From NCBI RefSeq assembly GCF_030684315.1, contig NC_081360.1, positions 8,846,599 to 8,910,598 of the forward strand: a DNA stretch of 64,000 nt, written 5' to 3'. This document shows positions 6,066 through 64,000 of the stretch, piece after piece. The translations under genes and the position numbers were made by a program. The notes beneath the pieces were generated by a model. The model saw nothing but the letters and a program-made list of their open reading frames with translations. It searched no databases and was not told the origin of the DNA. Source of the stretch: Stegostoma tigrinum. Its lineage: Eukaryota. How positions within the stretch are numbered: position 1 is the stretch's first letter; every line of letters begins with the position of its first letter.

Positions 6066-7815
6066 AAGCTCCTCTTGGGAGCACATACCCTCCTGCAAAA
6101 ATTCCATCCCCTATTCCCAATTCCTTCGCTCCCAAGAGGAGGTCGAACAGTTCATCCACTTTACCTTGCACCCCAACCTCAAGTTCACCTGGACCATCTC
6201 CAACACATCCCTTAGCTTCCTGGACCTTTCTGTCTCCATTTCAGGTAACCACCTAGAAACCGACATCCATTTCAAGCCCACCGACTCCCACATCTACCTA
6301 GAATACACCTCCTCCCACCTACCCACCTGCAAAAATTCCATCCCCTATTCCCAATTCCTTCGTCTCCGCTGCATCTGATCCCAGGATGAGGCATTCCACT
6401 CCCGTACATCTCAGATGTCCTTGTTCTACAAGGACTGCAACTTCTCCCCTGCAGTGGTCGAGAATGCCCTCGACCATGTCTCCTTCATCACCTGCAACTC
6501 ATCCCTCACACCCTGTCCCCGCAATAACCACCAAAAAATTTCCCTAGTCCTCACATACCAACCCACCAACTTCCGGATACAAAACATCATTCCTCCGACA
6601 CTTCTGCCATCTACAATCCGACCCCACCACCAAAGACATTTTTCCATCCCCACCCTTGTCTGCTTTCCGGAGAGACCACTCTCTCTGGGATTCCCTTGTC
6701 CGCTCCACACTCCCTCCAGCCCCACCACACCTGGCACCTTCCCCTGCAATCGCAGGAAGTGCTACACTTGCCCCCACACCTCCTCCCTCACTCACACCCC
6801 AGGCCCCAAGAAGACTTTCCATGTCAAGCAGACGTTCACCTGCACATCTGCCAATGTGGTATACTCTGCTGTACCCGTTGTGGCTTCCTCTACATCGGGG
6901 AAACCAAGCGGAGGCTTGGGGACCGCTTTGCAGAATATCTATGCTCGGTTCGCAATAAACTACTGCACCTCCCATTCGCGAGCCATTTCAACATTCCCTC
7001 GAATTCCTTAGGCGACATGTCCATCCTGGGCCTCCTGCAGTGCCACAATGATGCCACCCAAAGATTGCAGGAACAGCAACTCATATTCCGCCTGGGAACC
7101 CTGCAGCCCAATGGTATCCATGTGGATTTCACAGGCTACAAAATCTCCCCTCCTCTCCCCTCCTGCGTGCCAAAACCAGACCAGCTCATCCCCACCTCCC
7201 TAGCCTGTTCTTCCTCTCACCTATCCCCTCATCCCACCTCAAGCCGCACCTCCATTTCCTACCTACTAACCTCATCTTGCCCCCTTGACCTGTCCATCCT
7301 CCGCGGACTGACCTAACCTATCTCAGAAGGCAGTGGAGGCCAACTCTCTGGATACCTTCAAGAAAGAGATGCATAGAGCTCTTAAAGATACTGGAATCAA
7401 GGGTTATGCAGATAAGGCAGGAACAGGATACTGATTGTGAATGATCAGCCATGATCATAATGAATGGTGGTGCTGGCTTGAAGGGCCGAATGGCCTACTC
7501 CAGCACCTATTGTCTATTGTCTATTGTCCCCTCGTTACCTTCCCACCTATACTCACTTCTACAGGCTCCATCCCTGCCCCCTTAACTTGTCTGTCTCTCT
7601 CCACCTATCTTCTCCTCTATCCATCTTCGATCCACCTCCCCTCTCTCCCGATTTATTTCAGAACCCTCTCCCCATCCCCCTTTTCTGATGAAGGCTCTAG
7701 TCCAAAACGTCAGCTTTTGTGCTCCTAAAATGCTGCTTGGCCTGCTGTGTTCATCCAGCTCCACACTTTGTTATCTCAGATTTTCCAGCATCCGCTGTTC
7801 CCATTACCCCTGATA
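6066..7815 (+). mobile_element. 5'-truncated Penelope-like retroelement (RT C-terminus + GIY-YIG endonuclease + 3' pLTR)
   Basis: HPNLKFTWTIS..LSFLDLSV..FKPTDSHIYL..IPYSQFLRLRCI; CNRRKCYTC; CTRCGFLYIGETKRRLGDRFAE..GTLQPNGI; frameshifted; degenerate hammerhead at 7685-7711. Confidence 0.92.
7320..7528 (+). mobile_element. CR1-type LINE 3' tail nested in the Penelope 3' region
   Basis: gggccgaatggcctactcc followed by a (ctattgt)3 tail; Penelope sequence resumes afterwards. Confidence 0.75.
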
Positions 7816-8189
7816 CAACCGGCCCTCTGACCCTCCTGTTTATATCTGTCAGCCAGGGGTTCCTTATTGGACCAGATTAAGAGCCCCAATCAGGGAACTC
7901 ATATTCCGTGAGGTCCACCTGTCTGACCTCATTACAATCTCTCCTTCTGAGCCCGAGACCATAACCTGGTTCCTTGTTTTGTCGTTTCTCCTTGGGTGTT
8001 TCAGCACCGGGTCAGATTCCTCCAACTCTGCCTCTGGTACGGTTGGTGTGTAATGCGTAGTAGCTCTCAGTAGTATTAACTCTCTTCTTCATGTGGCAAA
8101 GGCATCAAGGCAATGACATCCACCGTGACCATCTCAGATTCTGAAATATCCTCAGTGTTTGAGGGAGAGGAACACCCGTTGGTTCCAGA

Positions 8190-18429: not shown

Positions 18430-18952
18430 AATTGGGGGAAGGGGAGATTTTGAAGCTGGTGAAATCTCCCCTTCCCCCACCGCATCCCAAAACCAGCCCA
18501 GTTCGTCCCCTCCCCCCACTGTACCACACAACCAGCCCAGCTCTTCCCCTCCACCCACTGCATCCCAAAACCAGTCCAACCTGTCTCTGCCTCCCTAACC
18601 TCTTCTTCCTCTCACCCATCCCTTCCTCCCACCCCAAGCCGCACCTCCATCTCCTACCTACTAACCTCATCCCACCTCCTTGACCTGTCCGTCTTCCCTG
18701 GACTGACCTATCCCCTCCCTACCTTCACACCTATACTCTCCTCTCCATCTATCTTCTTTTCTCTCCATCTTCTGTCTGCCTCCCCCTCTCTCCCTATTTA
18801 TTCCAGAACCCTCACCCCATCCCCCTCTCTGATGAAGGGTCTAGGCCCGAAACGTCAGCTTTTGTGCTCGTGAGAGGCTGCTGGGCCTGCTGTGTTCATC
18901 CAGCCTCACATTTTATTATCTTGGATTCTCCAGCATCTGCAGTTCCCATTAT
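18430..18952 (+). mobile_element. Penelope 3' fragment with pLTR and short 5' fold-back
   Basis: Matches 7140-7810; 5' junction ggggaaggggagattt / aaatctccccttcccc is an inverted repeat. Confidence 0.85.
18827..18858 (+). ncRNA. Minimal type I hammerhead ribozyme motif (family A), core intact
   Basis: CTGATGA (18829-35), a, stem II gggtc-ta-ggccc, GAAA, cg, TC; palindromic ACGT at stem III; stem I only about 2 bp. Confidence 0.65.
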
Positions 18953-19632
18953 TACATCCCCAATCTGTCCAGTCTCTCTTCATAACAGAATCTCTCCAGC
19001 CCAGGCAGCACCCTGGTAAATCTCTTCTGCTACCTCTCTCCAGTGCTATCAAATTCCTTCTATAACGCGGCTTCCAGAGCTGTAGTAATTGTCATACACT
19101 GACCTTTATTATGAGCTGTATCTACTCCAACATGATACAGAGACCAGCACCACAAACCCTGGGTGAAGCCTTTAAGTTTTGTGGCTCATCATGCAATGTA
19201 GCTCCTGCATAAAAAATTAACATATTCACAATTGCCTAAAAGAAAAAAAAAATTCTTTGCAAACCAGAAACTTGTGGAATGTTTTTGAATGTGATCCAGT
19301 CACAACTAGACAATGATATTGTACAGACTAATCCACCATTGCTAGCAACAAGATGAACATAACTGCAAACTAATTGATGTTACTGCAAGTCGAGAGATAA
19401 AGGGTAATGATGCTACTTAGCTGGTGCTTTGCAATTAAAATTCCTTTGTACCAGCACAATATCATCCTTATTACAGTCATTTAATCTTTAATGAAGTGTT
19501 GTTACTGATAAGAAATGCTGATTTGTGAGCCCACACACTTTATGTTTAGAGGTGGCCGAAAGAAAATCTGGAATGGATACAAATCAAATCTGCTATTGCT
19601 TGGACGGAGTTTAAAGCAACAGTACAACGTGT

Positions 19633-19872
19633 GATAATTACGTGTAGAGCTGGATGAGCCCAGCAGGCCAAGCAGCATCAGAGGAGCAGGAAAGCTGATG
19701 TTTCGGGCCTAGGCCCTTCTTCAGAAATGATTTCTGAGATTTCTTTAGAGATTTCTGAAGAAGGGTCCAGGCCTGAAACATCCTGCTCTATGATGCTGCT
19801 GGGCCTGCTGTGTTCATCCAGCTCTACACCTTATTATCTCAGATTCTCCTGCATCTGCAGTTCCTACTACCC
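19633..19872. mobile_element. Fold-back Penelope pLTR element with hammerhead motifs on both strands
   Basis: Left arm is the reverse complement of the right arm; CTGAAGA..GAAAcatc on each strand; TSD cagtacaac(g/a)tgt at 19620-19632 and 19873-19885. Confidence 0.85.
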
Positions 19873-20564
19873 CAGTACAACATGTATTACTTTCTGAGCT
19901 CCCTCAATGATATCCTTAGGAATATGACTAAACGATATTCCATGTAATATAGAAACTATATGAGAGCAGAACTGTGAAATAATAGCCAGCAAAGCCTATC
20001 TAGCCTTGAGCTCTTTCTCCAGGTTTTTAAAATTACAAGGTCGCCATAAGATCTGTTCCCTTCAGATCATTATCCAGCATCGTGGGGGAGACCAGAACGA
20101 ACCACCATAGAAGGTGGTGCCGATAATAAATCCTAGAGGGAATTTAAGTGAAACCTCTTTATCCTGGGAGTGATGAGAATTTGGAATTTGTTAGTACCGA
20201 GATCAATAGGATATATGTATTTTCAGCGGAAGCTGATGAAATACATCAGGAAGGGATCTGACAATTAAGATGAGATGAAATATGCTGAGCATGGGTTCAC
20301 ATGGAGCATAAACCTATTGGTCTGAATGCTTGTTTCTGTACTGTGGATTCTGTGTAAAAACAGAAATTAGCCCCAGTTCATTTCCCAAGCTGTGAATTAG
20401 CCAATTTTCATTGGCCACATGTCCTGTCAGAGGCCCTCCCTCAACCAGTGTGTATGCACATATTTGAGGGAACAGCATCCAGAGCTGTGGACATTATTCT
20501 GCGCTTTCCTCTTGGGCTGCACTTCCATAGGAATAGGAGGTAGCCATTCAGCTCCCCTACTTTC

Positions 20565-23744: not shown

Positions 23745-24885
23745 CAGAGATAGAGAAGGTGATTGAGAAATTTCCACCATTTCCCCCAGATCCAACATGA
23801 TGCCACCACCAAACATGTCTTTGAGCATTCCAAAAATACCATTCCCTCCATGACTCCCCAGTCCAGTCATTATGAACCCCAACACTTCCTCCCTTTCCCA
23901 CATCTTCATTCCATTCAAGCACAGGAGTTGCAACTCCTGCCTTTTAGTGTCGCCCATTCAAATCGATGAATGCCCCAAACACTCTTTACAAGTGCAACTA
24001 TAAATGAGTTACTGATACTTCTTCCAATTTAGCGCACTGTATTCATTGTTCATAATTCATTCTCCCCTCCACACAGAAGACTAAAAACAGAATGGGAGGC
24101 CACTTTGTGATACATCTACATTCAGTTTGTAAACATAGTCCCAACATTTTTGACATTTGTAATTTGACTTCTCTGCCTTGCCCTCACCCACACCTCACTG
24201 TCCTCGGCTTGCTGTAAGTCTTACAGTGAAGCTCAGTGCAACCTTGAGGTATAGCCCTCCCTAATCTTCTCAGCTCTCTGCAGCTATCCAGGCTCAATAT
24301 TGAGTTCAACTGCTTGAGATCATAAGCTCTGCATCCAATTTGCTGTCATTCTTTATTGTTTTATTTCTCACCCTGATTCTTTTTCTATCCCTTACATTCA
24401 GGCAGCTGTTATGTAGCCATACGCACCCCAACTTGAATTTGGTTTACTTAACCCCTTACCACTCTCTTTTTGTTTTGCACCATGGCATCTTATGTTAGTT
24501 AAACTCTCCCGCCAACCACCGTCTCACAGAGCCAGCCTTTCATTCTTCCTGTTTCCTCCCTCACTTCCTCTACTTGCTTAAAAAAAACACTTACGTTTCA
24601 TTCTTGACAACAAAATGTGAGGCTGGATGAGCACAGCAGGCCAAGCAGCATCTCAGGAGCACAAAAGCTGACGTTTTGGGCCTAGACCCTTCATCCAGCC
24701 TCACATTTTGTTGTCTTGGATTCTCCAGCATCTGCAGTTCCCATTATCTCTGATACGTTTCATTCTTGCTCCTTTTCTGATGACGTTTAATGGCCCGAAA
24801 CTTCGTTTCTTACCACAACCACTGAGTATTTCCAGCATTTTGCTGTTTTTCTTTCAGATTTCCAGCCTCAGCAGTGTTTGCGCTT
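23745..24885 (+). mobile_element. Old, highly decayed Penelope-like element 3' part
   Basis: Colinear similarity to 6600-7130; degenerate CTGATGA..GAAA at 24777-24800. Confidence 0.65.
24607..24753. mobile_element. Young fold-back pLTR mini-element
   Basis: Perfect 15-bp TSD tacgtttcattcttg (24592-24606, 24754-24768); inverted arms gacaacaaaatgtgaggctggatga / tcatccagcctcacattttgttgtc. Confidence 0.9.
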
Positions 24886-28024: not shown

Positions 28025-28655
28025 GTCCTGTCTTCCTGTATGGCTGTGAGATGTGGTCTGCCTACAGCAGACACCCCTGAAGCGATACCACCAACATTGC
28101 CTGCACAAGATTCTGCAAATCCACTGGGAAGAAAGACACACTGATACCAGGGTCCTTGACCAGGCCAACGTCCCCAACCATTCAGGCATGGATCACCTTT
28201 GACTAGCTGCAATGGGCTGTGCACATTGTCTACATAACTGACACGAAACTCCCCGAGCAGGTGCTCCAGTCCCAGCTCCGAAACAGCAGGCAAGCCCCAG
28301 GTGGACAGAGGAAGCGCTTCAGCCACACACTCAATGACTCACTGGCGTAGTGCGGCATTCCCACAGACCTCTGGGAATCACTGGCCCAAGAGCGTCCAAA
28401 GTGGAGGAGGAGCATCCGGGAAGGCGTTCGAGCACCTTGAGGCTTGCCATCAGGAAAAAACAGAAGTCAGGTGAAAATAGCTAAAGGAGTGCACTGCTGT
28501 GTCCACATCCCACCCACCCGTTCCCACGGCCACCTCCTGCCCCAAGTATAACAGAGCCTGCAGAAGCTGCATCGGCCTGTACAGGCACCTACCTCATCCT
28601 GAGAGGTGGAAGAGATCATCCTCGTCTGCAAGGGACTACCAATGAAGGAATGAAT
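28025..28655 (+). mobile_element. RTE-clade LINE 3' fragment
   Basis: VFLYGCEMW followed by sequence encoding YHQHCLHKILQIHWE and GGQRKRF motifs typical of RTE ORF C-termini. Confidence 0.75.
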
Positions 28656-29337
28656 ATCCTCTGGGCAATACGGGATGGGCAATAAATGCTGGCTGAGCCA
28701 CCTATGTCCACAATCCATGAATGAAAGAAAGAATTTATGACTGTGCACCCTAAGATATTCTGTGGTGGCTTCCTCCTTGAAATGGTGCCATTTAGATTAT
28801 GTTGCTTCGGCCATTATTGTTTTTTCTATCAGTTCACACTCATCCTTAAACTACAGCTGCCGTATTTCAGCCCATTTCATCAAGCTGCCTCTGTTCTCTT
28901 GAAACCTGTTACTATCTTGCTCTCTATTTATTACATTTTACAACTTTAAATCACCAGTAAGAACTAGGAATTGTACTCTCTAACCCTCAGTCCAAATCAT
29001 ATGTGTAGAACAAGAGAAGTGATGCTCCTAGTATTGATCCTGGAATACCACAGTACATCCTCCAGTCAGAAAAATCAACATCCACCACTATTCTCTGCTC
29101 CTTGTGCATTAACAAATTCCGCAATCAAGTTAGTACTATTCCTTTAATTCCATACATTTTGAATCCACCTGTTAAGTGGTACTTTATCAAATGCCTTTGG
29201 ATGTACAAGCTGTACTACATCACCTTCATCAAACTGCTTAACGTTTTATCAAATATCAGTCATTCAAGTACCTCACACGTTTTAAAAGAAAATTGATGCT
29301 GGCTCTGCCTTTTGAACCCATACCTCTCTGACTGAGA

Positions 29338-29833
29338 TAATAAAGTGTGAAGCTGGATGAACGCAGCAGGCCCAGCAGCATCTCAGGAGCACAAAAGCTG
29401 ACGTTTTGGGCCTAGACTCTTCATCAGAGAGGGGGATGCGGTGAGGGTTCTGGAATAAATAGGGAGAGAGGGGGAGGCGGACAGAAGATGGAGAGAAAAG
29501 AAGATAGGTGGAGAGGAGAGTATAGGTGGGGAGGTAGGGAGGGGATAGGTGAGTCCAGGGAAGACAGACAGGTCGAGGAGGTGGGATGAGGTTAGTAGGT
29601 AGGAGATGGAGGTGCGGCTTGGGGTGGGAGGAAGGGATGGGTGAGAGGAAGAACAGGTTAGGGAGGCAGAGACAGGCTGGACTGGTTTTGGGATGCAGTG
29701 GGGGGAGGGGTTAGGGTTAGGGTTAGGGTTAGGGTTAGAGATGCTGCTTGGCCTGCTGTGTTCATCCAGCTTCACACTTTATTATCTTGGATTCTCCAGC
29801 ATCTGCAGTCCCATTATCACTGATACAATTTTA
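29338..29833. mobile_element. Fold-back Penelope 3'-end insertion containing telomeric repeats
   Basis: Antisense Penelope 3' end 29338-29710, then (TTAGGG)4TTAG, then a sense pLTR arm 29737-29833; TSD acctctctg(a/c)ctgaga at 29322-29337 and 29834-29849. Confidence 0.9.
29708..29738 (+). repeat. Interstitial telomeric repeat GGG(TTAGGG)4TTAG
   Basis: Read directly from the sequence. Confidence 0.97.
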
Positions 29834-30072
29834 ACCTCTCTGCCTGAGAGTTAGCTTTGTCTTGCCATCAATTATGTTAGAATGATAGGTCTCCAGTTAT
29901 AAGATTTGTCCCTCCCTCCGTTTTGAACCAGGATGAAACTGCTTGCTATAACTCTAGTCCTCCGGCATTGAAAAATTGTGGTCAGAAATCCTGCCTCCAG
30001 CTCTAGCCTCCTTGGCAGCAGTGAGTGATTTGTGATAGATCCCATCTGGACCTGGGGACTTATCCACCCTAA

Positions 30073-30434
30073 TGCCATCAGGAAAAAACAGAAGTCAGGT
30101 GAAAATAGCTAAAGGAGTGCACTGCTGTGTCCACATCCCACCCACCCGTTCCCACGGCCACCTCCTGCCCCAAGTATAACAGAGCCTGCAGAAGCTGCAT
30201 CGGCCTGTACAGGCACCTACCTCATCCTGAGAGGTGGAAGAGATCATCCTCGTCTGCAAGGGACTACCAATGAAGGAATGAATTGCTTTGGAGGGAGATG
30301 ACCACAGAGGACACTTGCACTGCCTTCCTGCTTTTTTTCTCCCTTTTGGTCACCAATTCCCTTTCTCCCTCAGCAATCCTAATCTGCGGTGTGTCCAATT
30401 TGCTAAACGTGCTATCCACGACTTCCTCAGCATT
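30073..30434 (+). repeat. Composite local duplication (211 bp copy of 28445-28655 + 152 bp copy of 32449-32600)
   Basis: Both segments appear identical to their sources on visual comparison. Confidence 0.92.
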
Positions 30435-32905
30435 CCTCAGATGCCTTCCTTAGGCCAACTTGACCTAGATTAATCAAACATCTATCCCTAACCTCAACAT
30501 CCTTCATGTCCCTCTCCTAGGTAAATACCAACGCAAAGTACTCATTAAGAATGTCACTCATTTTCTCTGACTCCTCGCATGCCCACTTTTGTTCTTGAGT
30601 GGGCCAACCCTTTCTCTAGTTACCCTCTTGCTCCTTATGCGTGAATAAAAGACTTTGGGATTTTCCTTAACCCTGTTTGCTAAAGATATTTCATGACCTC
30701 TTTTAGCCCTCTTAATTCCTCGTTTCAGTTTGGCCCTACTTTCCCGATATTCTTCCAAAGCTTCGTCTGTTTTCAGTCACCTCGGCCTTATGTATGTTTC
30801 CTTTTTCTTCTTTGCTAGTCTCACAATTTCATCTGTCATCCATGGTTCCCTAATCTTGCCCTTTCCTTCCCTCATTTTCACAGAAACATGTCTGGCCTGC
30901 ACTCTAATCAACATCTCTTTAAAAACCTCCCACATATCAAATGTGGATTTACCCTCAAACTGCTGCTCCCAACCCACATTCCCTAGCTCCTGCCGAATTT
31001 TGCTATAGTTGGCCTTCCCCCAATTTAGCACTCTTCCTTTAGGACCACACTTGTCTTTGTCCATCAGTATTCTAAAATTTACAGCACTGTAATCACTACT
31101 CCCAAAATAATCCCTAACAGAAACTTCAACCACCTGGCCGGGCTCATTTCCAACACCAGGTCCAGTATGGCCCCTTCCCAAGTTGGACTATTTACATACT
31201 GCTCTATAAAACCCTCCTGGATGCTTCTTACAAATTCTGCTCCATCTAAACCCCTAACACTAAGTGAATCCCAGTTGGGAAAATTAAAATCTCCCATCAC
31301 CACCACCCTGTTGCTCCTACATCTTTCTGTAATCTGTCTACATATTTGTACCTCTAGGTCACGCTCGCTTTTGGGAGGCCTGTAGTACAGCCCCAACATT
31401 GCTACTGCACCCCTTCTATTTCTGAGCTCTGCCCATATTGTTTCACTGCTCAAGTATTCCATAGTGCCCTCCTTCAGCACAGCTGTGATATCCTCTTTGA
31501 CTAGTAATGCAACTCCTCCAGCCCTTTTACCTCCCTCTCTATCCCACCTGATACATCTATATCCAGGGATATTTCATTGCCAATCTTGCCCTTCCCTCAA
31601 CCAAGTCTCAGTAATAGCAAGAACATCATACTCCCAGGTATTAATCAAAGCCCTAAGTTCATCTGCCTTACCTATACACTTCTCACATTAAAACAAATGC
31701 ACCTCAGACCACCTGTCCCTTTGTGTTCATCATCTGCTCTCTGCCTACTCTTCTCCTTAGTCACACTGACTTCATTATCTAGTTCCTTACCGGCTTTAGT
31801 TACTACCTCCTCACTGTTCACTGACCTCCTCATTTGGTTCCCATCCCCCGCCACATTAGTTCAAACCCTCCCCAACAGCGTTAACAAAAGCACCCCCTAG
31901 GACATCGGTTCCAGTCCTGCCCAGGTGTAGACAGTCTGATTTGTTATTATCCCACCTCCCCCCAAACCGATCCCAATGCCCAGAAGTCTGAACACCTCCT
32001 TCCTGCACCATCTCTCAAGACACTCATTTATCCTGCCTATTCTTTCATTTCTATTTGGACTAGCACGTGGCACTAATAGCAATCCTGAGATTACTACCTC
32101 TGGGGTCCTATTTTTTAACTTGGCTCCTAACTCCCTAAATTCTGCTTGTAGGACCTCATCCCATTTATTACCTATATCATTGGTGCCCATATGCACCACG
32201 ACAGCTGGCTGTTCACCCTCCCCCTTCAGAATGTCCTGCAGTTGGTCCGAGACATCCCTGACCTGTGCACCTGGGAGGCAACATACCATTCGGGAGTCTT
32301 GTTTGTGACCACAGAACCACCTATCTCTTCCCCTAACAACTGAACCTCCTATGACTATAGCCCTTCCACTCTTTTTCCCACCCCTCTTTACAGCAGAGCC
32401 AACCACGGTGCCATGAACCTGACTATTGTTGCCTTTCCCTCAGTATACTTGCTTTGGAGGGAGATGACCACAGAGGACACTTGCACTGCCTTCCTGCTTT
32501 TTTTCTCCCTTTTGGTCACCAATTCCCTTTCTCCCTCAGCAATCCTAATCTGCGGTGTGTCCAATTTGCTAAACGTGCTATCCACGACTTCCTCAGCATT
32601 GCGGAAGCTTCGAAGTGAGTCCATCCACAGATCCAGAGCCGTCATACAGTCTAACAATGGCTGCAGCTGGACATACTTCCTACACATGTACAAGTCAGGA
32701 ACATCAGCCCCATCCCTGAGTTCCAACATTGAGCAAGAGGAGCATAACACAGTTCTGGGATCTTGTGCCATTTTTACTCTAAAGCTTAGCTTAGCCCTAC
32801 TATCATATCAAATACTGGATAAATGAAATGAAAGAATTTTTACCAATCACTCTACTTACCAGCACACGATTAAACAAAGCCTTATCTTATCAACACACCA
32901 CAGAG

Positions 32906-34956: not shown

Positions 34957-34958
34957 AG

Positions 34959-34995
<37 letters not shown>

Positions 34996-35000
34996 CAGAG
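34957..35000. repeat. (AGCCAG)n hexamer microsatellite
   Basis: About 7 tandem agccag units. Confidence 0.95.
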
Positions 35001-52989: not shown

Positions 52990-54880
52990 GAAACAAAAAC
53001 AGAAATTGCTGGAAAAGTTCAGCAGGTTTCACAGCATTGATGGAGAGAAATCAGAGTTAACATTTCAGGTAGAGAGACCCTTCCTCAGAACTGATTGTAG
53101 CTAGGAAAATATGCAGAAGTTAGGGTGGGGGGAGAGAGTAGGGAGTAAACAATAAATGGGGTTAGAGCCCAAAGAGAGAGAAGAATAGTTGGGCAGACAA
53201 AGGAGTAGATAAAAATGTGGCTAGGAGGGTGATAAGCCATTAAAGGAGGCTGTTAGTAGTGAACAATAGGTTGTGTGTAATAGCAGAGTATGTGATACCA
53301 AGGCCTGATGTTTGGGGGTAGGAGTAAGGACATGGGAGAACTTGAGCCCTAAAGTTATCGAACATGATATTGAATCCAGAAAGCTGCAGGTCACCAGGTG
53401 CAAAATGCGGTGCTGTTCTTCCATCTTGCACTGAGTTTCGCTGGAATGCTGCAACAAGCCTGAGACAGAGATGTTGGTCAAGGAACAGGGTGTTAAAGTG
53501 GCAGGGCAATTGGAAACTCTGGGTGTTTTTTTGCGGACAGAACGTAGGTGCTCTGTGAAGCGGTCACCCAGTCTACAGTTCATTTCCCCAATGTAGAGGA
53601 GACCACATTGGGAGCAGTGAATGCAGTTGACTAGATTACATGACGTATTGGTAAAGTGCTGTTTCATCTAGAAGGTATGTTTGGGCCCTGGGATATTTAG
53701 GAGGGTAGAAATAAACTGAAAAGTATTACACCTTCTGTGGCTGCAGGGGAAGGTGCTATGAGGCTCTGTTGTGTGCTGCAAGTGAAGGACAAGTGGACCC
53801 AGTGGGAAATGTCCCTATGAAAGGCAGACAAAGGAGGGGAGGGACGGGGAATATGTTTCTGGTGGTAGCATCTCGCTGGAGGTAGTGGATCTAGCAGCTC
53901 ATCCTGTGGCTCTCGTGCTGGTGGGATGGCAGTTAAGGTCAAGGGGAACCCTATTGCTTTGGTGGGAGGGGAGAGAAGGGGTGAGAGCGGAAGTGTGGGA
54001 AATAGATCGGACCCAGCTGAAGGGCCTGTCAACAACGTTGCTGGGGAATCCTCAGTTGAGGAAGGAGGTGGACATTTTGGAGGCTCCCTTTTGAAGTTGG
54101 AATTATCAGAACAGATGTGATGAATATGGAGGAACTGGAAGATTGGAATAGAGTCTTTACAGGAAGCAGGCTGTAAGAATGTGTAGTTGAAGTGGGAGTC
54201 GGTTAGCTTATAGGGGAAATTGGTGGCCAGCCTATTCCCAGAAATGGAAAGAGAGATGTCATGAAAGGGAAGGGAGGAGACAAGGATGCACCAGATGAAA
54301 GTGAGACCAAAGTGGAAATTAGAAGAAAAATTGATAAACTTTTTAGATTCTGGGCGTGAGAGGGAAGCAGAACCGATGATCTCATCGATATATCGGAGAA
54401 ATTGTTGTGGGTGGGGGCTGGAATAGGAATGGAACAAGGAATGTTCTGTGTGCCCCACGAAGTGACAGGCATATCTGGGTACCCTGTAGGTACTCGTGGC
54501 CACCCCTCTGATCTGAAGAAAATGAAAGGAGTAGCAAGAGAATTTGTTCAGGGTGAGATCAAGCTCGGCCAAACGGAGGAAGCTGGTGGTGGATGCAGAC
54601 GGTTCAGGACGTTCCTGGAAGAAGAGGAGAGCCCTGAGACTATCCTAGTGGGGGCTAGACATGTAAATGAATTGCACGTCCATGGGAAAGAGGGCGTGGC
54701 TGGAGCCTGCAAACTGGAAATTGTGGAACTGGCATAAAGCATCAGAGAAATCGCGGATGTACATGGGCAAGGACTGGACTAGGGGGTAAAGACCGACTCA
54801 AGGTAGGAAGAGATGTGTTCTGTGGGGCAGGAGCAGACAGAAACAATGGACATGCCCGGGCAGTCCTGTTTGTGTATTGG
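52990..54880 (-). mobile_element. Decayed Penelope-like retroelement (RT + GIY-YIG + family B pLTR)
   Basis: FLQIRGVATST..PRYACHFVG, FLRYIDEI (RT); CSQCGLLYIGE..RLGDRFTEHLRSV (GIY-YIG). Confidence 0.92.
53050..53095 (-). ncRNA. Minimal type I hammerhead ribozyme motif (family B)
   Basis: atc-agtt CTGAGGA a gggt-ctctct-acct GAAA tg TT aact-ct-gat: stem I agtt/aact, stem II and core are all present. Confidence 0.7.
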
Positions 54881-54884
54881 GGTT

Positions 54885-57800
54885 GTAAGAGTAAGTTAAG
54901 ATCTGTTCTTTATCTTACAATGAATGGGCAGAGATGGCAGTTAGGGCGCTGGTACGCTCCTCCTGCCAGATGTGGGAGATCAGGGAGCAGTCTATTGTCC
55001 CTGACAACTGCATCTGCAGCAGGTGTGACCAGCTGCAGCTCCACAGGAACTGTATGGTTTGGTTGGCTACATGGAGGAGAAAAGAGAGTGTGGTATTCAC
55101 TCGTTACAGTGAATGTGGTCACACTGTGGGTTCAGTCCGGTAGATGGGTGACCGCCAGGAGAGGTAGGCAGGCAGTCCGGGAGTCTCCGTTTTTGGACAC
55201 TGGGAGGGACAGCCTCTCAGGGGAGTACAACAGCAGCAGCAGCCAGGCCCGTGACACCATAACTGGCTCTGCTGTAGGCCAGGGGTCGGGGCAAAGCCCA
55301 GTCAGGCTGTAGTAGTAGTCAGGGTCACAGGCATTTCTGTGGCTGTATTTGAGACACCAGGATGGTGTGTTGCCTCCCTGGTGCCAGGGTCAAGGACGTC
55401 TCTGATCGGTTACGTGAAATGCTCATGGGGGAGGTTGAGCGGCCAGAGGTTGTGGTACATACTGTTACTGACGACAAAGGTAGGAAGAGGGATGAGGTTC
55501 CTGAAGAGTAATTATAGGGAGTTAGACAGAAGGTTAAAATGCAGGACCTCAGGGGTAGTAATTTCTGGACTACTTCAGGCGCTACAAGTTAGGGAGTGTA
55601 GGAACAGAAAGATCGGGGAAACGAGTGAGTGGCTTGAGAGCTGGTGCAGAAGGCAGGCTTTCAGATTCTTAGATCATTGGGATCTCTTCTGGGGTAGAGG
55701 TGACCTGTTCAGGAGAGACGGGTTGCACCTGAGCTGGAGGGGGACCAATTTCCTAGCGGGGACATTTGCTAGAGCCACTCAGGGGAGTTTTAAACTAGTC
55801 TGGCAGGGTTTTGGGATCCAAAGCAGTAGGGAAGCAAAAGAGAAAGTTCAGGATAGTACAGAGGCTAATGAGAGCAAGTTAAATAGTAAAGGCAGTGTTG
55901 GTAATCCTTGTACTAGTCAGGTCAGGCAAGAGCATGGCAGGAAACAAGGGAAGTCTGGGTTGAGCTGCATTTATTTCAATGCAAGAGGCCTGACAGGTAA
56001 GGTAAATGAATGCGGGGTATGGATGAATACACAGGAGTGGGATATTATAGGTATTACAGAAACATGGCTGAGGGAGAGGCAAGACTGGCAGTTCAGTTGT
56101 TCTAGGGTACAGATGCTTTAGGAATGGTAGAGGGAAGGTGGGGTGGGGGGGTGGGGTGTGGGTGGTAAGGAATCGTGGAGTTGCATTTTAGATTAGAGAG
56201 AACATCATGGCAGCACAGAGAGAAATCATTGTGGAGGGTTCTTTTGCTGAGTCTATATGGATACAACTGAGAAATATAAGGGGGGTGAGATTACTTTGAT
56301 AGCATTGTATTATAGGCCTTCCAGCAGCAAGCGGGTAATTGAAAAGCAAACATGTAAAGAGATTGCCAATAGCTGCAAGAATAATAGGGTTGTAATAATA
56401 GGGGATTTTAATGTTCTTAACATTGACCAGGACTGCCATTGTGTAAAGGGCTTGGATGGAGAGAAATTGGTTGTGTATTCAGGTAGAATTTCTCATGCAG
56501 TATGTAGATGGTGCTACTAGAGAAGGGGTAAAACCTGACCTCTGCTTAGGCAAAAGGCAGGGTAAGTGTTAGCAGGTGAGCACTTTGGGACTGGTGACCA
56601 TAATTCCATTCACTTCAAATTAGCAATGGATAGGTATAGGTCTTGTCTACAAGTTAAAGTTCTAAATTGGAGCAAGGCCGATTTTGATGATCTTAGACAA
56701 GAACTTTCAAAAGTAGATTGGGGAGGCTGCCTGCAGGCAAAGAGACATCTGGTAAGTGGGAGGCTTTTAAACATGAATTATTGAGGGTTCAGGGCCAGTT
56801 TGTTCCTGTTAGAGTGAAGGGGAAGGCTGGCACGAGAAGGGAACGCTGGAGAATTAAAGTTATTGAAGCCCATGGTCTTGGGGGGGGGGGGGGGGGGGGG
56901 GGGGGAAGAGGCATTTGACATGTGTAGGCAGCTGGGATCAAGTGAATTCCTTGAGGAGTATAGGGGCCGGAGTACACTTACTGGATAAATCAGGGACTAA
57001 AAGGGGACACAAGATGGCAATGGCAGACAAGATAAAGGAGAATCCAAAGAGATTCTGTAAGTACATTAAGGGCAAAAGAGTAACTAGGGAGAGAATAGGG
57101 CCTCTTAAAGATCAACAAGGTCATCTATGTGCAGAGCCATGAGATGGGTGAAATCCTAAATGAATATTTTTCATCAGTATTTACCTCGAGAAAGGTATGA
57201 ATGCAACCTGTTGAAGTTGATTCCAGGAGTTTGTGGGAGGGTAGGGAGGAAACCCCCAAGTTGTGCTATTTGTATCATTGACAGCCAAGGGTGAAGTGTC
57301 CGAAGATTGGAGGGTGGCTAATGTTGTGCCATTATTTAAGGAAGGCTGCAGGGAAATGGCTGGAAACTACAGACCAGTAAGCCTAATGTGCGTGGGTTGG
57401 TAAGTTGTTTGAGGAGATTCTGAGACACAGGATTGACAGGCATTTGAAGAAGAAAGGACACATTTGGGAGAGTCAGCATAGCTTTGCGTGTGGGATATTG
57501 TATCTGATAAACTTGATTGAGTTTTTTGAAGGGGTTACCAAGAAAGTAGGTGAGGGCAGTGCACTAGCTGTTGCCTTGTGGATTTTAGCAAGCCCTTGGA
57601 TAAAGTACCACACAGTAGGTAGTTGAACATAGAACATAGAACAATACCGCGCAGAACAGGCCCTTCGGCCCTCGATGTTGCGCCGACCTGTGAACTAATC
57701 TAAGCCCCTCCCTACACTATCCTATCATTATCCATATGCTTATTCAAGGACTGTTTAAATGCCCCTAATGTGGCTGAGTTAACTACATTGGCAGGCAGGG

Positions 57801-61543: not shown

Positions 61544-61613
61544 TGATAAGGCTGCTAAAATTATGTGCAGAATTCTTGTGATAAGGCTGCTAAAATTATG
61601 TGCAGAATTCTTG
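61544..61613. repeat. Perfect 35-bp tandem duplication
   Basis: tgataaggctgctaaaattatgtgcagaattcttg twice in a row. Confidence 0.95.
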
Positions 61614-62538: not shown

Positions 62539-64000
62539 GTATGCATTCCGTTATTTGCGGTTTTGCAATGAAACATTACTTAAATATGTCTACTGAAAAA
62601 GAGAACAGAGTTGGAAAATGACTGTTCTGTCAACCTTCTGAATGGAAACAGTTATGGATGATGACATTGCTAAGGCTGTCTAAAGTTAACCTCACAAGAC
62701 CAGTACAGTTATACACTGAGTTGCCTGTCTACTGCTTAAGTAATTGTTTTGAAGTGTTATCCAAACATCAGAGTTCATTGTTTGTGTATTGCACTGGTGT
62801 GTCTCTAGTCAATGTTGGTGATAAATAAATAACACCCCTGCCCATCACCACATCTGACAGCTTACAGACACAGTTGAGGATGTAGCATCATTCCATATGC
62901 TTGATAAATCTTGGCTAATAGTTCTTGTCAAAGGTGATCATCTTTGCTGTGACTGAGGCTCCAATAAAAATATATAACTGTTCTTGCTTCAGATCTTATG
63001 AAAGATGAAGTCCATGGATGGAGTGGTCCTTTTCCATACATATTTAAAAGCAGCAGTCCTTTATTTTGACGTTTTTCCCAAACATGATAGAACAATATAG
63101 TTTATGTGTCAGCTGATAGCTAACTATGTCACCACCACAATAATATAAACATTAAATAGCACTTTATTCATAGCCCATCTATTAAGTCTGTGAAAGACAG
63201 TTCTGATGGGCTTTGTTTTGGCTGCAATAGATAAGTTCTAGCAATAAGCTTTCCCTCAGTGAGAACCTTTCTGAGGAATGAGAGACCAGCTTTGAATCAA
63301 CATTCAACTTCCCAGTCTATCCAACTCCCTCTTCTCCCCCCCCCCCCCCCCCACTGCCCAGAGAATTCTGACTACATTCCCAGACCAACCATATGTTAAT
63401 ATGTGCTGTTATGCTTACTCAAGGAAAGTGATCGGGATTGGGAAACATGTGACTCATTATTGTTATAGATTTAGTAACAATTATTGGTGCAATGAAAGAA
63501 AGATTAAGGACAAAGCCCTATCATGGGTAAATTTGGATTTTAATTTACGTCACCTTATTTACAGTTAATGTGAAGGTTAGTACAGAGTTCAAAGAGGTAT
63601 TGTTTATGCAGAATATAACCTTGCTAATAAATTGTTGCTTTTGGATATTTTGCACTTTACAATGATCTCACAAACCACTTCCTCTCTAACATGATCTAGA
63701 TTTGCTGAAGATTTCATGCTGCTCCTCATTGCTGTCAACTCTCCCTTTTAATTCGGGTATTTCTGAATACAATATATGAAACACAACCTTTTGTACAGTC
63801 TGAGAGCTTCTGGTTGGTGAACTGGTTTAAGAAAGTCAACAAGACAGAATGGTTCACAGTTTATTTAACTTTGTTTATATTAAATTAAAAATATATTTTT
63901 GACAGATTCATGTAACAAAAATGAACAGTCTTCCAATTGTACAGCGTAGATGATGCCCAAGCTGTAAGATGCTGCATTTTACTCCTGCTCATTTAACAGT

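Follow-up and report, generated by a model that had tools for sequence, protein, structure and literature searches.

A telomeric tract between the arms of a Penelope insertion

Positions 29322–29849 of the 64-kb stretch of DNA that we analysed (the window) hold a Penelope insertion that consists of two arms in opposite orientation, a perfect telomeric tract between them and a target-site duplication (TSD) around the whole. The left TSD (29322–29337, plus strand, 16 bp) agrees with the right TSD (29834–29849, plus strand) at 15 of 16 positions, and the 3 bases at its end match those with which the long arm begins; the preliminary description had placed the entire unit within one 16-bp TSD, which was confirmed with the correction of this one mismatch. 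The long arm (29335–29710, minus strand, 376 nt) is 95% identical to the reverse complement of 18546–18921. It comprises the last 17 codons of the element's open reading frame (ORF) and the 3′ untranslated/pLTR region, and is 5′-truncated at 29710. When this arm was translated in the ORF frame, 15 of 16 residues were identical to the end of P0058, a protein labelled whale shark. An 8-nt telomere-like motif (GGTTAGGG on the plus strand) that is native to the element spans the ORF stop codon at 29656–29663 (minus strand), ~50 nt from the seam between the arms, and is also present in the 18.5-kb copy (18593–18600).

The long arm ends, as described before, in six G, an A and four G, and the tract follows directly. 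This tract, (TTAGGG)4 TTAG, occupies 29711–29738 (plus strand, 28 nt) and has no mismatch; its last G may also be a base of the short arm. The GGG that ends the long arm (29708–29710, plus strand) is in register with the tract for 3 bases. The short sense arm begins with an inverted-repeat part (29738–29787, plus strand), 48 of whose 50 positions are identical to inverted 29335–29384. From 29738 the sense arm matches 18872–18955 and, in the 7.7-kb copy, 7730–7818, the latter match extending to 29828. Its last part, a ‘tail’ of ~41 nt (29788–29828, plus strand), occurs in the sense arm only, lies within the match to 7730–7818, and is followed by 29829–29833 before the right TSD. Loose contig ends of other copies pile up at 29786–29788 and at 29809. 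The switch from the tract into the sense pLTR arm stands as first described, but the two bases ‘ag’ that had been read there as a separate linker were rejected as such: they are element sequence, found at the same place in both arms of the insertion and in the 24.6-kb copy.

The tract is the sole perfect run of at least two hexamers in the window, in which the expected number of such a 28-mer is 2e-12 under a first-order Markov model. Sequence comparison showed that the Penelope copies at 7140 and 18470 are without it, in agreement with the preliminary description. The insertion is not terminal, being flanked by non-telomeric DNA for 29 kb on one side and 34 kb on the other. Interstitial telomeric sequences (ITS) have been defined by a minimum of four hexamers and a mismatch count below one per unit (PMC7215372), and the tract, with at least four hexamers, a mismatch count under that limit and an internal site, is a short ITS in this sense. 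Across the two arms and the TSD, 3 of 66 paired positions differ, and the insertion is ~2% diverged; a 28-nt tract of that age stays unchanged with a probability of 0.53. One difference between the arms (29373 versus 29749) falls on a site that is polymorphic in the Penelope family, ~70/30 by depth, and the arms of the 19.6-kb copy differ at the same site the opposite way round. The two arms may come from two RNAs or from two pLTRs.

Read support

We compared the locus with contigs from 4 of the 21 listed read runs, in an alignment that passed over the repeat stretch including the tract. The left border of the insertion was crossed by independent contigs in two of the four runs (X15 and X18) and the right border in one (X15), in each case over ~21 nt and with no other letters. 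A contig from X15 spans 29813–30041, and with it the right TSD, equally without other letters. Contigs from X1 gave no flank cover, and X4 produced 159 joints and 57 loose ends at the repeat stretch, mostly marked as false. None of the 12 fillers shown (of 164) was telomeric, in this alignment that passed over the repeat stretch. A contig from organism B tracks the left flank at ~94% (27 other letters in 438) and stops at 29337, where the left TSD ends, with 20 further letters beyond it unaligned; organism B gave no cover over 29875–30050. Judged from the left flank only, this suggests that the insertion is absent from organism B.

Some 220 nt downstream of the insertion, 362 nt (30073–30434) are made up of two exact copies of nearby DNA: 30073–30283 equals 28445–28655, 30283–30434 equals 32449–32600, and the two are joined by a 1-nt overlap. 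A recent templated insertion in two steps would account for its appearance, as would an assembly error.

The element belongs to an abundant Penelope family

We next assigned the element to a family. In the copy at 6.1–7.8 kb, the 6.1–7.15-kb part matches residues 110–455 of P0058 at 71–85%, and among the named homologues the best are proteins of sharks and skates, which makes a shark the likely host. P0058 matched the GIY-YIG profile above the cut-off and RVT_1 below it; the window's own broken frames gave no Pfam match (0 of 4), with one weak match at E 0.059. Between the reverse transcriptase (RT) and the endonuclease, both the ORF at 6379..7011 and P0058 carry a CX2-5CxxC motif (CX4CxxC), a linker described for the Neptune and Nematis clades (PMC8557442). 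On these sequence features we class the element as an endonuclease-bearing Penelope, putatively of Neptune type, the linker motif being common to Neptune and Nematis. The family is highly abundant, with 124,494 and 148,703 contigs aligned from two runs.

A core-like motif in the pLTR (29400–29427, minus strand), recognised by eye and mutated in this copy, is a candidate hammerhead; Rfam returned no hammerhead, with 0 matches at the gathering threshold and only chance ones by E-value, and the fold z-score was 0.02. When the long arm was translated in a non-coding frame that is open and compared with proteins, 0 of 65 candidates matched. Scans of sequence collections for other copies gave none in bacterial genomes, one match in viral contigs and, in metagenomes, none and then one; the viral-contig and metagenome matches were rejected as true copies, being chance 18–22-mers without further similarity. 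The window also contains a second, more distant Penelope-like RT/endonuclease remnant (53389–54683, minus strand; ~40% to P0058). In its 3′ region, the long Penelope copy is interrupted by ~200 nt of unrelated sequence (7319–7527), an insert that by eye resembles a CR1 3′ end, with a 7-bp tandem tail at 7507–7528.

An inverted layout of this kind is usual in such elements and occurs again in the window. Typical Penelope insertions are described as having an inverted, 5′-truncated arm, a tail of 30–40 bp at one end and a TSD (PMC3846280, PMC8557442), and purified Anolis Penelope protein is reported to cleave and extend both strands, starting at two sites by which the tail is defined (PMC11167929). 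The 19.6- and 24.6-kb copies share this design, with TSDs of 13 and 15 bp. Elsewhere in the window, TSDs of 13, 15 and 12–14 bp were found at three copies, and none at 3 of the 7 copies tried. Among the 15 joints listed for other copies (146 more exist beyond these), 11 were antisense-to-sense arm joints.

Polarity, register and overlap at the seam

The polarity of the tract had been taken to point to telomerase. That argument fails, as at a head-to-head seam either orientation of the tract is G-rich on one arm; polarity is uninformative because the seam is, as we infer, where two cDNA 3′ ends come together. Register is weak evidence: the in-register start is 3 nt, and 24% of positions in the G-rich long arm would give at least 3 nt. 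The tract ends in TTAG, the end of a GGTTAG cycle, and this fits 1 or 2 of the 6 possible phases; GGTTAG is described as the end of the telomerase cycle, with release similarly probable at any step (PMC8705835). The bases that flank the tract on both sides are all element-derived, with no foreign non-telomeric base.

When the tract is removed, the arms overlap by 5 nt (GAGAT), given a single-unit source; this was noticed post hoc. In the 7.1- and 18.4-kb copies, read antisense upstream of the first 39-bp unit, the next four bases equal the start of the short arm. The chance of such an overlap is 0.34% for 4 nt and 0.08% for 5 nt, estimated from 45,095 random pairs of arm positions. Besides this one, the window has three inverted seams, and two of them overlap as well, by 5 nt at 18462–18466 and by 6 nt at 24690–24695. 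Long overlaps are not the rule in the family, since the 11 arm-to-arm joints listed for other copies share only 0–2 letters. Since the arms without the tract would share 5 nt, much as the arms do at two of those three seams, the point of joining was probably fixed before the repeats entered.

The overlap depends on the number of 39-bp units in the source element. P0058, P0001, P0063 and the 7.1-kb copy have a single unit, and none of 21 protein tails shows more than one, most of these tails being too short for unit counting and derived from different species or subfamilies. Three units are present in the most similar copy of the window (95%). We consider it probable that the source was single-unit. 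In the 18.4-kb copy, the three in-frame units (18467–18578; 13 codons each, ~80% alike) lengthen the ORF tail of the subfamily; a copy-specific stutter was rejected as their origin, as they are only ~80% alike and in frame. This copy opens with a fold-back (18434–18466) in which 33 nt of antisense ORF end run into the sense copy with 5 nt shared between them, and a search for a TSD there gave none that was convincing. The inverted copy at 19620–19885, with its 13-bp TSD, carries a seam filler of ~25 nt of imperfect local repeats at 19.73 kb.

Origin of the tract

We tentatively favour, as a reading that falls a little short of probable, that telomerase extended the GGG end while the open seam was being repaired during integration. 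Telomerase as the enzyme and integration as the time of its action are what we infer here. The element's enzyme would place one nick in each target strand, at a distance of 16 bp, both nicks would prime a cDNA, from two start sites ~40 nt apart, and the two cDNA 3′ ends would meet in the middle of the insertion. The join point would first be set by the GAGAT overlap between the arms; telomerase would then lengthen the top-strand end, which had stopped at or been trimmed to GGGG, by about five cycles that finish in TTAG, and the extended end would be joined to the other arm with an overlap of 0–1 nt. The same reading includes the plain capping of a stalled cDNA within integration, for which the overlap would be coincidental. 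Of the earlier proposal that telomerase capped a stalled cDNA, the telomerase origin is retained as the most likely, and a random joining of the capped end is disfavoured by the 5-nt overlap.

Several observations speak for telomerase acting in integration. The tract sits exactly at the seam, the sole place that is open at that time, and no base of the element is missing relative to a single-unit source. The perfect canonical TTAGGG repeat is unique in the window, starts with a 3-nt register and ends in TTAG, and the seams of this Penelope family are prone to messy repair, with overlaps and local-repeat filler. Against it, this is a single case, one of four inverted seams in the window; the overlap requires a two-step repair, for which a later break accounts directly; and the overlap itself hinges on a single-unit source when the closest copy has three units. 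Our assumption of telomerase is further weakened by a study of cancer, which attributes most new telomeric sites to capture and favours this over direct telomerase action (PMC11293586).

We weighed five other explanations, and the standing given to each reading is a matter of judgement, uncomputed. The main rival, though somewhat unlikely in our view, is an ordinary ITS: the seam would have suffered a double-strand break later on, and telomerase or a fragment of telomeric DNA or RNA would have filled it. It gains from the clean overlap join left on removal of the tract (0.3% by chance for 4 nt, 0.08% for 5 nt) and from the single-unit source on which that join depends, for which the shortness and foreign origin of most protein tails count on the other side. 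The 50-bp inverted-repeat stem, predicted to fold with its base at the seam, could attract a cut; insertion without change to the flanks is reported at 11 of 66 horse loci (PMC7215372), and 6 of 27 TERC-ITS lie inside transposons, without enrichment (PMC8537989). Such a break must nonetheless have struck a window of ~5 bp within a 500-bp element, and tracts of this kind are rare, with 229 counted in the human genome (PMC7215372). The age of the insertion does not separate integration from a later break, because a tract of the age of the arms would still be perfect with the probability of 0.53 given above. An assembly or consensus artefact is highly improbable: the contig alignment passed over 52 letters at repeats, the tract included, and 220 nt downstream there is an exact duplicate in two parts, but the window has no N, contigs confirm both borders and the tract stands between correctly joined element ends. 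Expansion by replication slippage of a one-unit seam filler deserves very little weight. One hexamer would take no more than a few templated bases after GGG, seams of this kind often hold short fillers and slippage is known to expand telomeric tracts in yeast (PMC6410037), yet the insertion is only ~2% diverged. The growth of a hexamer from one unit to nearly five perfect ones would be slow.

Synthesis by the Penelope enzyme itself, in all its forms together, is less likely than the telomerase reading and on our judgement plainly unlikely. In one form, quite unlikely by itself, a backward slip brought the Penelope RT, or else a repair polymerase, onto the 8-nt telomere-like motif, which it then copied repeatedly. 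The motif lies ~50 nt from the seam and could template the hexamer with a 2-nt realignment, and the 19.73-kb filler indicates that repeated local synthesis occurs in this family; that filler is imperfect, however, where the tract is perfect, four cycles would all have had to halt at the same base with no run-on, and the RNA around the motif is predicted to be unstructured, with no apparent template boundary. In the other form, an improbable one, the Penelope RT jumped onto telomerase RNA or C-rich telomeric nucleic acid. Penelope RTs are placed as the sister group of TERT (PMC8557442), and template jumps are known for non-LTR enzymes (PMC8857657), but reading through telomerase RNA would add non-telomeric bases, none of which flank the tract, and the 5-nt overlap is left unexplained. 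One pass over the template of telomerase RNA also yields fewer than two repeats. We found nothing in favour of a jump onto telomerase RNA, which had been offered alongside telomerase capping.

Comparison with known systems

The element shares with the canonical endonuclease-bearing Penelopes (Neptune type, rotifer Pen2a_Av, Anolis PAc) the RT with a C-terminal GIY-YIG, the inverted arm, the 30–40-bp tail and the TSD (PMC3846280, PMC8557442, PMC11167929). The seams described in those accounts are palindromes or short overlaps, whereas here the seam is a perfect telomeric tract. Endonuclease-less Penelopes at chromosome ends are reported to have telomeric repeats added to their truncated 5′ ends, and the present locus resembles such Athena and Coprina elements in that telomeric repeats follow a 5′-truncated Penelope end in cDNA polarity (PMC3846280). 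It differs from them in that the element has an endonuclease, makes TSDs and sits at an internal site with the tract sealed between its arms, and in that its 3′ end has no telomeric primer-binding repeats; reverse-complement telomeric repeats beside the 3′ ribozyme were found at the 3′ end of no copy in the window. Membership of Athena or Coprina was rejected, as GIY-YIG is present in the family.

L1 twin-priming places two target-primed cDNAs head-to-head within one TSD, often with a short overlap. The present insertion is alike in its head-to-head, target-primed cDNAs within one TSD; unlike twin-primed L1, its arms overlap by 50 nt from two fixed starts, a Penelope trait.

With the ITS that Nergadze and Giulotto described as insertions at breaks, the tract shares at least four perfect hexamers, 3 nt in register and no loss of flank, except that the ‘break’ here is the internal seam of a retroelement. 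For mammals, telomeric insertion at breaks is reported with in-register starts at ~77% of loci (PMC2246262, PMC7215372), the phenomenon extends to a shark (PMC8537989) and telomeric patches have been recovered at induced breaks (PMC5110952). TERC-ITS, which in the primates and rodents surveyed are described as not enriched near transposons (PMC8537989), were rejected as a class for this locus, as there is no telomerase-RNA fragment beside the repeats and the flanks are all element-derived. Transposition and slippage have been listed among possible origins of ITS (PMC6410037). In sturgeon, Penelopes bounded by telomere-like repeats are described beside a herpesvirus, which is a setting unlike this one (PMC12031113).

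The locus combines two known processes, and the telomeric tract at the seam is its new part. Among the mostly open-access papers listed in our literature search, none was on telomeric tracts at the seam inside a Penelope that carries an endonuclease; the locus tables of ITS papers may contain such cases. As a single locus, it is known repair chemistry in an unusual place. If it recurs, telomerase would have in the open Penelope seam a defined and very abundant substrate within the germ line of vertebrates, and the seam would be a source of ITS. The question is countable, because every insertion has a TSD of its own, a pair of arms and an empty join that can be predicted; phase, timing and enrichment could thus be counted in one shark assembly. 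To the further idea that the shark Neptune RT performs telomerase-like repeat addition by realigning on the 8-nt motif at the stop codon we give little credence; were this self-templating true, a retroelement of very high copy number would write TTAGGG arrays into chromosomes without telomerase and offer a living model for the origin of TERT processivity.

Other repeats in the window include an exact 35-bp tandem duplication (61544–61613), a perfect (AGCCAG)7 (34957–35000) and homopolymers of 26 G (56880–56905) and 17 C (63336–63352).
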